The notes beneath the pieces were generated by a model. That model saw nothing but the letters and a program-made list of their open reading frames with translations. It did no database searches and was not told the DNA's origin. Of a stretch of DNA of 64,000 nt, positions 27,351 to 63,848 are shown piece by piece; the stretch's first letter is position 1; each line of letters begins with the position of its first letter. Origin of the DNA: Desulfuromonadales bacterium (GTDB lineage Bacteria > Desulfobacterota > Desulfuromonadia > Desulfuromonadales > SZUA-540); the NCBI GenBank assembly GCA_033549025.1, contig JAWSUS010000002.1:250539-314538 (forward strand). Reading direction: 5' to 3'. Made by a program: the position numbers and the translations under genes.

Positions 27351-27472
27351 AACCATCAAAGGCTTGTTGTGGCAGGCGAGCCGGCGATACAAACCTCCTT
27401 TCGTTACCTCTGTTGGTTATCGGGCCGGTCAAAAGGGATGCCTCCCCCACTTGACCGGCCCGAAATCTTTTC
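27351..27472 (+). ncRNA. Putative sRNA copy 1
   Basis: TAGAGT -10, AAACCTCC motif, 13-bp stem with GGGATGCCTCCCCC loop, TCTTTTC tail. Confidence 0.55.
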
Positions 27473-27590
27473 AGCTCCACCTGCGGCGATCGCCCCGACT
27501 GCGCAAAAGCACAGTTCACCAGCGTGGCTTCTTGTCCCAAGGTTTACGCAATGGCACGTGGAAAAGCGTGACGCCACCCGGTATAGTCAT

Positions 27591-27712
27591 AACCATCAAA
27601 GGCTTGTTGTGGCAGGCGAGCTGGCGATACAAACCTCCTTTCGTTATCTCTGTTGGTTATCGGGCCGGTCAAAAGGGATGCCTCCCCCACTTGACCGGCC
27701 CGAAATCTTTTC
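27591..27712 (+). ncRNA. Putative sRNA copy 2
   Basis: TATAGT -10 and the same elements as copy 1. Confidence 0.55.
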
Positions 27713-27831
27713 AGCCGCCCTCGCGGCGCTTCCCCCCCACTGCACAAAAGCACAGTTCAGCTGCGTGGCTCCTTATCCCAAGGTTTACGCAATGGCACGT
27801 GGAAAAGCGTGACGCCACCCGGTATAGTCAT

Positions 27832-27950
27832 AACCATCAAAGGCTTGTTGTGGCAGGCGAGCTGGCGATAACTTCTTCATTGAAAACCTCCCGAACGCTC
27901 AAGGCCGAATGCAGGGATGCCTCCCCCTGAATTCGGCCTTGCGTCTTTTC
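27832..27950 (+). ncRNA. Putative sRNA copy 3 (diverged)
   Basis: Same 5' end and loop, different stem CAAGGCCGAAT/ATTCGGCCTTG, TCTTTTC tail. Confidence 0.55.
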
Positions 27951-27995
27951 AGGCTCTGAAATTTGCGGCCATCCGAGTTTTCGCTGGCAGATCCC

Positions 27996-28024
27996 TTGAA
28001 AACGGGGTGCTTTCCTGCTTCAAT
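27996..28024 (+). promoter_or_regulatory. Putative sigma70 promoter (native tkt promoter, now upstream of the omegaRNA)
   Basis: TTGAAA-17-TTCAAT with extended -10 TG. Confidence 0.4.
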
Positions 28025-28056
28025 GGAGCAGAACCCGCACCCCGCAAGGAGACGCC

Positions 28057-28325
28057 GTCAATCACCCCTGACTGAAGTCAGAGGCTTGTAACAACAAGTC
28101 TGGATTGACCAGGCACAGCCACCAGCGAGAGGTCGCTGACGGGGCTACGTTGGAAACGAAATAGGCACCTGGAATGCCCTCCCAGTTCCAGGCTCTGCGG
28201 TAGCCGGTTAAAAGACGTTCAGGGTAAAGCGTCAGTGCCGTCTACGTTAAACCGTTTCACAACCTTGCCGAGGGAGACTTTACCGCCGCAAGGCGAGAAA
28301 GCCGGGATAACCCGGTACTTAAAAG
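28057..28325 (+). ncRNA. omegaRNA (HEARO-like) scaffold
   Basis: GTCAA...TTGAC pairing, CTACGTT, CCTGGAATGCCCTCCCAGTTCCAGG hairpin, ACCTTGCCGAGGGAGACTTTACC; directly upstream of iscB. Confidence 0.85.
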
Positions 28326-29691
28326 GTACAACGATGCAGAGAGTCTTTGTACTCGACAATACCAAACAACCCCTTTCCCCTTGCTCGCCGGCACGGGCCA
28401 GAATGCTCCTGCGAAACGGAAAGGCGGCGGTGTATCGCCGCTACCCGTTCACTATTATTTTGAAGCACCGCACCGGCGGGGATGTGCAATCGGTCGAACT
28501 CAAGCTCGATCCGGGCGGCAAGACCACCGGTGTTGCCCTGGTAGGCAACCACGACTCCGCCAATACCGTTCTCTGGTGCGCGGAAGTGCACCACCGAGGC
28601 GCAGCCATCAAAAAAGCCCTCGAAAGCCGTCGGGCGATCCGGCGTTCACGGCGTCATCGCAAGACCCGCTACCGTGCGCCCCGGTTCGATAACCGGACTC
28701 GGCCACAAGGCTGGTTGCCACCGTCACTGCAGTCCAGAGTCAACAACGTCCTGACGCTGGCAAAGCGGCTGCAACGACTCTGCCCGATCACCAGCGTTGC
28801 GGTCGAAACGGTGAGGTTTGATTTGCAGAAAGCCGAGAACCCGGAGATTAGTGGCGTGGAATACCAGCAAGGGACGCTATTTGGTTACGAGGTTCGCGAG
28901 TATCTGTTGGAAAAATGGCAACGGCGTTGTGCTTATTGTGGGGACGAGAATGTGCCGCTGGAGATCGAGCATGTCGTTCCCAGAAGCAAAGGTGGCTCCA
29001 ACCGGATCAGTAATCTTACCCTGTCGTGTCGGGACTGCAACGAACGCAAAGGCAATCGGCCCGTGCAGGAATTTCTGGCTGACTGGCCGGAACAGCTCCA
29101 AAAGATCCTTGGTCAATTAAAGCGACCGCTCAATGATTCCGCTGCCGTCAACGCCACCCGCTACGCCATCGGCCATGCGGTTAAAACGCTGGGGCTACCC
29201 GTCTCTTTCTGGTCTGGCGGTCGGACCAAGTACAACCGCACTGGGCTGCACTATCCCAAGGCCCACTGGATTGACGCGGCATGTGTGGGTGAGTCTGGAG
29301 ATACCGTGCGATTGAAACCCGACCAGGCCCCTTTATCCATCACCGCCACGGGACGGGGCAGCCGTCAGATGTGCCGTATGGATCGCTTCGGCTTCCCCCG
29401 CACCAGCGCCAAGAGTGCTCGCTTCGTGCAGGGGTTTCGCACAGGTGACCAGGTTAAAGCCGTCGTTCCCTCCGGCAAAAGAGCCGGTCTGCACTTGGGC
29501 CGTGTCGCCGTTAGAACCAGCGGCAGATTCAATATCGCGACGGCCTCCGGAACGATCCAGGGCATATCTTACCGGCACTGCCGGATCGTGCATCAGGCTG
29601 ACGGCTACACCTATCAACCAAAGCCTTCCGTCTCACGACGGATCGCAATTCCTCCCCCGGTTGAAACCGGAGGTCTCCTTGTGAGGTTTCT
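28057..29691 (+). mobile_element. Non-autonomous IS200/IS605-superfamily IscB element
   Basis: Subterminal TGAA-loop hairpins CTGAC-TGAA-GTCAG and CCGGT-TGAA-ACCGG; omegaRNA plus iscB; no tnpA; lower GC than the flanks. Confidence 0.88.
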
Positions 29692-29695
29692 ATGA
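28334..29695 (+). CDS. iscB: RNA-guided endonuclease IscB
   Basis: VFVLD...PLSPC (PLMP), DPG RuvC-I, RRxRR bridge helix, VETVRFD RuvC-II, HNH with CxxC pairs, HWIDA RuvC-III. Confidence 0.93.
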
Positions 29696-31683
29696 AAAAC
29701 CCCGACTTTAAAAATCCCGTCGTCCAGGCCTCCATCGATACCCTGCGCCTGCTGTCGGCGGATATGGTGGAACGGGCCAACTCCGGCCATCCGGGAACCC
29801 CCATGGAGGCGGCGCCGCTGGCCTATCTCCTCTTTCAGCGCCACCTGCGCCACAACCCCGCGAATCCGGCCTGGCCGGGCCGCGACCGTTTCATCCTCTC
29901 TTGCGGACATGCTTCGGCCCTGCTCTACAGTCTGCTGCACCTGAGCGGCTACGACCTTTCCCTCGATGACCTCAAAAACTTCCGCCAGCTCGACAGCCGT
30001 ACTCCCGGTCATCCCGAGTTCGGCCACACCCCGGGCGTCGAGACGACCACCGGGCCGCTAGGGCAGGGCTTCGCCGTCGGCGTCGGCATGGCCATGGGCG
30101 CTCGCCATCTCGCCGAAAGGATCGACGCCCGCCTCTTCGACACCCGCGTCTACACCCTCTGCTCCGACGGCGACCTCATGGAAGGGGTGGCGTCCGAGGC
30201 GGCGTCCCTGGCCGGGCATCTGCGCCTGGGCAACCTCATCTCTCTCTACCTCGACAACCGCATCACCATCGAGGGGGAAACCGACCTGGCTTTCAGCGAA
30301 GAGGTCGCCACGCGTTTTCTCGCCTACGGCTGGCAGGTCCTACGGGTGGAAGGGGAAAATCTGGCGGAAATCGACGCAGCCATCGAGGCGGCCAAGAACG
30401 AACCGCGCCCGTCCCTCATCATCGCCCGCACCCATATCGGCTTCGGCGCTCCCACCAAGCAGGACACCGCCGACGCCCACGGCGCCCCCCTCGGCGCCGA
30501 CGAACTGGCGCAGACCAAGCGGGCCTTCGGCCGCAAGCCCGACGAGCACTTTGGCATCCCCGCCAGTGTGCGCCAGCACATGGGTCAGGCCGTTCGCCGC
30601 GGCCGCGCCCTGGAGCGCCAGTGGACGCGCCGCTTCGACCGCCTGAACCAGTCCCTGCATTCCCCCCTGACGGCCTGGCTGCAGAGCCGCGGAGGCGGCC
30701 TGCCCGATGGCTGGGGGGAGGAGCTGCCGACTTTTGATCCCGCCGACGGCCCCATGGCCACCCGCAAGGCGAGCGGTATCGTCCTCAACGCCATGGCCGC
30801 CCGGCTCCCTCTGCTGTTGGGCGGCTCGGCCGACCTGGCCCCTTCCAACAACACCGAACTCAAGGGTGAAGCCGCCTTTCGTCCCGGCCACAGCGGCCGC
30901 AATATTCACTTCGGCGTCCGGGAGCACGCCATGGGCGCCATCCTCAACGGCCTATCCCACACCGACGGCCTCATCCCCTTCGGCGGCACCTTTCTCATCT
31001 TCTCCGAATACATGCGCCCGCCCATGCGGCTGGCCGCCATGATGGGGCTGGCCCCCGTCTACGTCTTTACCCACGATTCCATCGGCCTTGGCGAAGACGG
31101 CCCCACCCACCAGCCGGTGGAACAGCTTGCCGCCCTGCGCGCCGTGCCCAATCTCCGGGTCATCCGTCCCGGCGACGCCAACGAAACGGCAGTCGCCTGG
31201 CACGAGGCCATCGCGCACCGAAGCGGTCCCACCGCCCTCATCCTCTCCCGCCAGAACCTGCCCATTCTGGACCGCAGCACACTCGCCTCAGCCGAGGGTC
31301 TGCGGCGCGGCGGCTATGTGCTGGCCCGGGAAGACAGCGACCTGGACATCCTGCTGCTGGCCAGCGGCTCGGAAGTCCCTCTCGCCCTGCAGGCCCGCGA
31401 TATCCTGCAGCAGCAGGGGAAGGGGACCCGGGTCGTTTCTCTGCCCTGCTGGGAGCTCTTCGAGGCCCAGGATGAAACCTACCGCCGGCAGGTGCTGCCG
31501 CCTTCCTGTCAGCGGCGTCTCGCCGTGGAAGCAGCCAGCCCCTTCGGCTGGGAGCGCTACGTCGGCCTGCAGGGTGCCGTCATCGGCCTCGACGGCTACG
31601 GCGCCAGCGCCCCGGCTGACCAGCTTTTTGAGCGCTTCGGCTTCACGGCGGCCCAAATCGCCGCCCGCGCCCTGGCCCTGTAA
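29692..31683 (+). CDS. tkt: Transketolase
   Basis: [47 protein letters not shown]. Confidence 0.96.

Positions 31684-63772: not shown

Positions 63773-63848
<76 letters not shown>

Follow-up and report, generated by a model that had tools for sequence, protein, structure and literature searches.

An IscB-omegaRNA element that separates a transketolase start codon from its ribosome-binding site, and start-codon landing among its relatives

Described elements that most resemble the one reported here are the ISC transposons ISC1-1_MA, ISC2-1_HM and ISC2-1_MS, which insert at N|ATGA without duplicating the target (Kapitonov et al. 2016, PMC4810608), and ISGst5 of Geobacillus stearothermophilus, whose nuclease GstIscB has as its target-adjacent motif (TAM) the transposon target TTCAT (= ATGAA). 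In passages of the same work (Meers et al., bioRxiv 10.1101/2023.03.14.532601), the GstIscB guide was derived from transcription starting outside the element, host transcription was needed, an orientation bias to upstream genes was reported and empty donor joints were cut. A further point of comparison is provided by IStrons, IS605-type elements that limit harm to the host gene by group I intron splicing (bioRxiv 10.1101/2023.11.20.567912). The subject of this report is an iscB element in a 64,000-nucleotide window from a Desulfuromonadales bacterium (assembly GCA_033549025.1, contig JAWSUS010000002.1, positions 250,539 to 314,538, forward strand), where it separates the ribosome-binding site (RBS) of the transketolase gene tkt from the tkt start codon. 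Like the elements of Kapitonov et al. (PMC4810608), it contains iscB only, has a 5'-GT terminus and subterminal hairpins, is inserted 5' of ATGA without duplication and has corresponding empty sites in relatives. Insertion at N|ATGA, the IscB TAM TTCAT and the reliance on host transcription are already published; taken alone, the locus adds one more ordinary case to a family already described, and the interesting part is the family-wide habit of landing at start codons.

The element, a non-autonomous ISC2 or IscB-omegaRNA element, occupied positions 28057..29691 on the plus strand (1,635 bp, without target duplication) and was followed directly by an intact tkt (29692..31683, plus strand; 663 aa), which was identified with Pfam and by a TIGR00232 match over cut-off and was 95-96% identical to congener proteins over residues 1-663. 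In-silico excision of 28057-29691 gave ...CCCCGCAAGGAGACGCC|ATGAAAAAC and restored the arrangement AAGGAG-5 nt-ATG, the original tkt Shine-Dalgarno (SD) sequence AAGGAG being at 28046..28051 (plus strand), 5 nt before the insertion point, with a generic anti-SD duplex of -8.5 kcal/mol. A sequence-only reading of the window had set these boundaries, predicted the empty allele and proposed that relatives be compared for the empty site; its observation at tkt was confirmed as real, since two congeners and one public contig have the same junction. In congener G001 the last 16 upstream bases were identical and ran directly into ATGAAAAAC, the same empty junction with few substitutions was found in congener G002, and in a contig of public run X7 position 28056 ran straight into 29692, exactly 1,635 bases being absent. 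The X7 contig showed one difference in 329 and no ambiguous letters at the junction, which ruled out a target-site duplication or shifted boundary. Filled tkt junctions were present in contigs of runs X1, X3 and X9, which represent three studies, one of them possibly the source sample. The presence of the filled allele in contigs of three studies indicates that it persists in nature and, since empty and filled junctions are both found in nature, the site is polymorphic.

A second copy of the element, 98.5% identical and with the same ends, was located elsewhere in the genome (G000:C1:227781-226147; loci L001 and L036) between a GAGG-containing leader (RBS) and a subtilase gene that starts with ATGAAT, in agreement with the suggestion from the sequence-only reading that other copies should also precede ATGA. 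The subtilase gene (618 aa, with a predicted signal-like N-terminus) lay beside type II secretion/pilus-like genes, and this site was empty in G001. No gene-less copies were detected in the genome, where the only Rfam HEARO matches were the two full copies. At locus L069 (94% aa), missed by the pattern used for calling junctions, the element was found by eye to lie between a GAGGT flank and ATGAAAGC, and in run X1 another 5' flank carried AAAGGAGG and ATGAC came after an element 3' end. None of the three congeners (G003 being 78% complete) gave an IscB match, and of 400 other genomes in the phylum only 4 did, a patchy distribution; the absence from congeners and rarity across the phylum fit a recent horizontal arrival of the element.

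The position of the element at tkt follows what is the usual pattern of the family, with nothing special to tkt. Matches to IscB by tblastn at 112 loci yielded 72 called junctions and 58 distinct downstream flanks; both ends were distinct at 31 of these sites, and exclusion of those shortened by contig ends left 27. The shared-flank pairs L044/L076 and L141/L143, which may be assembly chimeras, were counted once in the two-ended set. A site was scored as start-like if the ATGA opened a frame of at least 50 codons and an in-frame stop occurred at most 30 codons upstream. A frame of at least 50 codons was opened at 43 of 52 junctions not shortened by a contig end, and 20 of the 27 distinct two-ended sites were start-like, 16 of them also with an SD in the host flank (18 and 14 of 25, respectively, when the two copies in this genome were excluded). 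Among ATGA sites flanking the same loci, by comparison, 50 of 508 were start-like and 11 of 508 also had an SD. As a null, 1,358 of 4,841 non-disruptive (intergenic or gene-start) ATGA sites in the present genome were start-like (28%), 778 with an SD; the two-ended sites exceeded this null at P 9e-7 (start-like) and P 4e-7 (with SD). These comparisons are subject to the use of a generic anti-SD sequence, to metagenome contigs that are possibly chimeric and to the few host lineages represented.

Both ends of the element conformed to rules established for IS608, in which the cleavage sites are recognised through pairing with 4-nt guides located 5' of subterminal hairpins, guide base one opposite -3 and base two opposite -4, with A-2 left unpaired (PMC3201880); the published pairs TTAC/AAAG and TCAA/GAAT (PMC3201880, PMC5934647) are read by us as also pairing the fourth guide base with -1. 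In IS200/IS605 terms the end adjacent to tkt, called the right end in the sequence-only reading, is the left end of the transposon. This left end (29651..29677, minus strand) comprised a subterminal hairpin with the loop TTTCAA and the DNA guide GAGA (29674-29677), which predicts TCAT (ATGA on the plus strand) as target. The transposon right end (28057..28088, minus strand) comprised the TGAC cleavage site, a hairpin at about 28065-28084 and the DNA guide CAAG (28085-28088), the guide/cleavage-site pairs on the minus strand thus being GAGA/TCAT on the left and CAAG/terminal TGAC on the right. The single-stranded DNA fold had a z of -3.5 for the right end and only -1.1 for the left-end hairpin, which was supported by position, conservation and covariation of guide and target. 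Among the 58 distinct sites, 52 had a T-first guide (read on the plus strand) with ATGA, and three of four C-first guides (read likewise) accompanied GTGA; three of 58 sites departed from the rule, two of them being GTGATGA runs at which the pattern may have misplaced the cut. At loci L080, L100 and L101 the left-end guide was GAAG and the element was placed before GTGA rather than ATGA, which is possibly again a start codon. When the left end was located without the motif, the first ATGA or GTGA lay 12-18 nt past the guide in 66 of 77 partly redundant loci. The target was ATGAAT after the second copy and ATGAC after the element end in the X1 contig, while the fifth target base was A at 44 of 58 sites, a preference only. 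A strict TAM of ATGAAA or ATGAA was excluded by the ATGAAT and ATGAC targets; of the TAM ATGA(AA) proposed earlier from the sequence, the ATGA part, equal to the insertion target, remains the predicted TAM, and the AA extension makes it too long.

With a target of 4-5 nt that is not duplicated and subterminal hairpins with matching 4-nt guides, the element shares these two traits with the IS200/IS605 superfamily; it differs from autonomous ISC2Y elements in having no tnpA/iscA of its own. None of the six Y1_Tnp matches in the genome fell within the element, as expected from the earlier reading, which had noted no tnpA. One of the six belonged to an intact tnpA-tnpB IS605 element (G000:C8:111361-111723) with a hairpin that has the same TTTCAA loop as the iscB element, and we infer that the iscB element may be mobilised in trans by this tnpA. 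A second tnpA was interrupted by contig ends, with its parts on C20 and C59.

The omegaRNA scaffold (28057..28283, plus strand) was identified by a match to Rfam HEARO (RF02033, model positions 1-211) that started exactly at 28057, covered the whole model and scored 132 bits (gathering score 83). The gene iscB (28334..29695, plus strand) encodes 453 aa with RRXRR (PF14239) and HNH domains by Pfam, and the protein scored 458 bits against NCBIfam guided_IscB (NF040563; cut-off 175). An IscB with split RuvC and HNH and, upstream of it, a HEARO RNA that starts at the element boundary are two of the features that mark ISC2 or IscB-omegaRNA (OMEGA) elements. The catalytic motifs of RuvC and HNH, said to be intact on first inspection, were indeed so, all seven positions (D59, E158, H213, N227, N236, H311 and D314) being conserved here and unchanged in each of the 42 aligned relatives. 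These positions aligned with solved IscB chains, and RuvC I-III and HNH aligned with TbaIscB (9K30) and OgeuIscB (7UTN/7XHT), although these proteins are distant in sequence from the present IscB (E 1e-48 to 2e-30). Weighed against the substitutions described below, this makes IscB likely, but not certain, to be active as a nuclease, and RNA-guided, TAM-dependent cleavage is predicted for it from published IscB biology.

Host DNA at 28031..28056 (plus strand), the tkt 5' leader, is present in the empty alleles and abuts the HEARO start; it is predicted to act as the omegaRNA guide and to be the target where the element is absent. The ATGA at 29692..29695 (plus strand) is at once the insertion target, the predicted TAM, the tkt start and the iscB stop. 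Assignment of the guide to the tkt leader and of the TAM to ATGA, both proposed earlier, would follow from published IscB biology (bioRxiv 10.1101/2023.03.14.532601), and the earlier interpretation as a whole appears largely right, with partial support. A probable tkt promoter (TTGAAA, 17 nt, TG-c-TTCAAT; 27996..28024, plus strand) was recognised by eye, was not called by a sigma-70 scan and would place the transcript start near 28031; a CCTGCTTCAAT stretch was also present 5' of tkt in both G001 and G002 and in several other families. One contig of run X9, an RNA library, extended over 27956-28327, giving no strand or 5' end. On the minus strand of contig C22 (offset about 10478), an ATGA-flanked site matched the guide of the second copy at 13 of the last 14 bases. 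This site is possibly a chromosomal off-target of that guide, and guides built from RBS regions may be prone to off-targets.

The sequence of events that we favour begins with a transposase-less, recently mobile ISC2 element, the single-stranded DNA of which would be inserted just 5' of ATGA by a TnpA from elsewhere, the left-end DNA guide GAnA choosing the target by pairing with TCAT as in IS608, a model that fits the sequence. An ATGA at a start codon would be unique in that insertion there breaks no frame, has a co-oriented host promoter upstream and leaves a short leader. Persisting insertions are strongly enriched at RBS|ATG, probably because of these properties and because more than a third of the genes in this genome start with ATGA. 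At tkt, host transcription would run through the leader, omegaRNA, iscB and tkt in that order, and the approximately 26-nt leader transcribed from the promoter at 27996-28024 would serve as guide. By analogy with GstIscB, IscB would cut the empty allele only, where leader and ATGA are joined, and recombination would then restore the element; neither filled junction would combine a guide match with the TAM. Translation of tkt would be kept through the overlap of iscB stop and tkt start in ATGA together with a weaker SD in the last 10 bases of the element.

Features consistent with the return of translation to the host gene were evident at the left end. As had been proposed, the iscB stop was the TGA of the tkt ATGA (29693-29695), and an SD-like GAGG was situated in the element end at 29683-29686, 5 nt before the ATG. 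The latter is part of TGAGGT (29682..29687, plus strand) in the left-end linker, a possible replacement RBS for tkt with an anti-SD duplex of -6.8 kcal/mol, weaker than the -8.5 kcal/mol of the host SD. With a threshold of at most -5.5 kcal/mol, an SD-like motif occurred in the last bases of the element at 42 of 58 sites, corresponding to 9 of 23 protein clusters (lineages), as opposed to 2.5 expected by shuffling (P 3e-5) and 3.7 expected from the element body (P 0.006). The iscB stop was the target TGA at 19 of 58 sites and a -2 overlap (TGATG or TAATG) occurred at four more, ATGA and TGATG overlaps being forms linked to translational coupling (PMC6728339). Of 21 iscB frames that read past the junction, 19 ended on the target TGA, these being distributed over 7 of the 23 clusters, and at only two sites did iscB continue deeper into the host gene. 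Of the 58 sites, 48 had an SD, an overlap or both. A promoter or terminator inside the element that acts on tkt was rejected as an explanation, as no promoter was found within the element by the sigma-70 scan and terminator-like sites were at chance (4 vs 3.7).

The reading of the locus as an ISC2 element that inserts at ATGA, survives at starts, takes its guide from the leader, cuts empty alleles and keeps tkt translatable is, in our judgement, probably correct. A broader proposal, that IscB elements targeting ATGA or GTGA are start-codon specialists in which target, TAM, borrowed stop and portable left-end SD were selected together, has about an even chance of being right. One rival, which we regard as possible but not probable, is a passive account in which ATGA sites are hit at random, selection removes insertions within genes, and neither the SD-like end nor the stop overlap has a role in translation, both being side effects of constraint on the left-end hairpin. 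ATGA begins 1,078 of the 2,885 called genes in this genome (37%), which would explain part of the pattern; the left-end SD was not seen in 14 of 23 lineages; and the linker itself can fold a small CCT/AGG-type hairpin, further hairpins being described in left ends of the IS608 family (PMC5934647). Yet gene starts made up 22% of non-disruptive ATGA sites, or 36% on the stricter basis of counting half of the intergenic sites, short of the 20 start-like sites found among 27 (P 7e-5 with 36% as the null), and the SD enrichment held by lineage against both shuffles and element body. Neither an SD nor a stop overlap is predicted by passive survival, against which the termination of nearly all junction-crossing iscB frames on the target TGA also counts. 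In an account that we consider improbable, the transpososome itself prefers RBS|ATG at insertion, for example through extra pairing between left end and host leader. It draws on the complementarity, at 13 of 15 positions, between the tkt leader (28039-28053) and the left end (29673-29687), which ranked in the top 0.4% of 1,076 genes that start with ATGA, whichever copy's end was used, and on slightly stronger pairing of own than of permuted pairs among the 31 two-ended sites (P 0.016, or 0.042 without tkt). This complementarity was, however, spotted post hoc, was absent from the second site (rank 0.67-0.91) and overlaps the DNA guide needed for pairing with TCAT; across the family the signal is weak and could stem from a shared GC content, and the extended pairing engineered in IS608 lies upstream of the target tetramer, a different geometry. 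The same stretch covers the replacement SD, and the predicted RNA duplex of leader and left end (-25.4 kcal/mol), not present at the second site, could occlude the new RBS or be due to chance.

Several further observations weigh against our preferred reading, and some of them are shared with a third alternative, that the tkt copy is a relic in which IscB no longer cuts and in which the insertion lowers or abolishes tkt expression while a second transketolase compensates. The IscB of the tkt copy carries G62 at a position that is S or A in all 42 relatives, as well as W251, which is outside the four commonest residues of that column; with V85, these are private substitutions, and the two genomic copies of iscB differ by 11 non-synonymous and six synonymous codons, a near-neutral divergence, so that the nuclease of the tkt copy may be decaying. 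Because a second, two-piece transketolase with 34-42% identity to tkt is present on contig C13 (G000:C13:11010-12521), expression of tkt may be dispensable. On the other side, the iscB reading frame, the catalytic positions, the full-length HEARO and tkt are all intact, and contigs of runs X1 and X3 have the consensus base at codon 62; we think a relic unlikely. In addition, the X9 contig begins 75 nt upstream of the predicted transcript start and may represent DNA, 7 of the 27 two-ended sites were not start-like, and the null was built from one genome with a home-made gene caller (2,885 genes). Folding showed the replacement SD to be mostly paired, but the host SD in the empty allele was likewise paired, so accessibility is uninformative either way.

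Other features of the window include a tRNA gene (63773-63845; Rfam), which with HEARO accounted for the only Rfam matches over the gathering score, and three tandem units of about 240 bp upstream of tkt (plus strand; 27354-27475, 27594-27715 and 27835-27950) that look like an unannotated small-RNA family. In each unit a promoter-like stretch (CACGT... followed by TAGAGT/TATAGT) was combined with a near-invariant 5' part of about 36 nt that included a hairpin, with a CU-rich linker and with a terminator-like hairpin, the loop of which contained CCTCC (anti-SD-like). Counterparts were noted as two units in each of G001-G003 and, within the order, as matches in 78 of 151 genomes. The 5' stem covaried, with 10 cells changed on both sides in 17 distinct rows and none of 500 shuffles scoring as high. 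No meaningful Rfam match was obtained at E <= 5 and no paper was found in a brief literature search; these units are possibly more novel than the IscB element.

No published statement of start-codon landing by IscB elements or of an RBS that they bring for the host gene was found in a partial literature search, so absence of the pattern from print is not established. In the main text of PMC4810608 the terms codon, translation, ribosom and intergenic did not occur, ATGA was not tied to starts and no RBS was mentioned. Neither start-codon landing nor a replacement RBS was mentioned in passages of Meers et al. (bioRxiv 10.1101/2023.03.14.532601), and passages of PMC9581776, PMC9755519, PMC10705468 and PMC13565253 contained no start-codon or RBS statement. 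The activity of GstIscB was measured, whereas that of the tkt element is predicted from its similarity to such relatives. The tkt element resembles IStrons as an IS605-type element that spares its host gene and differs from them in that no group I intron was matched with Rfam, the element lying outside the reading frame instead.

If the broader proposal of start-codon specialists is true, such an element could enter any gap between RBS and ATG, where a short leader transcribed from the host promoter would provide a ready-made guide, and would hand translation back to the host gene, as an intron-free counterpart of the IStron strategy. It would also explain the recurrence of start-codon-like TAMs in IscB. 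IscB elements need host transcription for the guide, and landing at RBS|ATG would supply it without harm to the host. With a housekeeping gene whose alleles, filled and empty, have exact junctions, and with a second site in the same genome, the locus offers a natural test of these ideas, and it predicts both the guide and the TAM of an uncharacterised compact nuclease.

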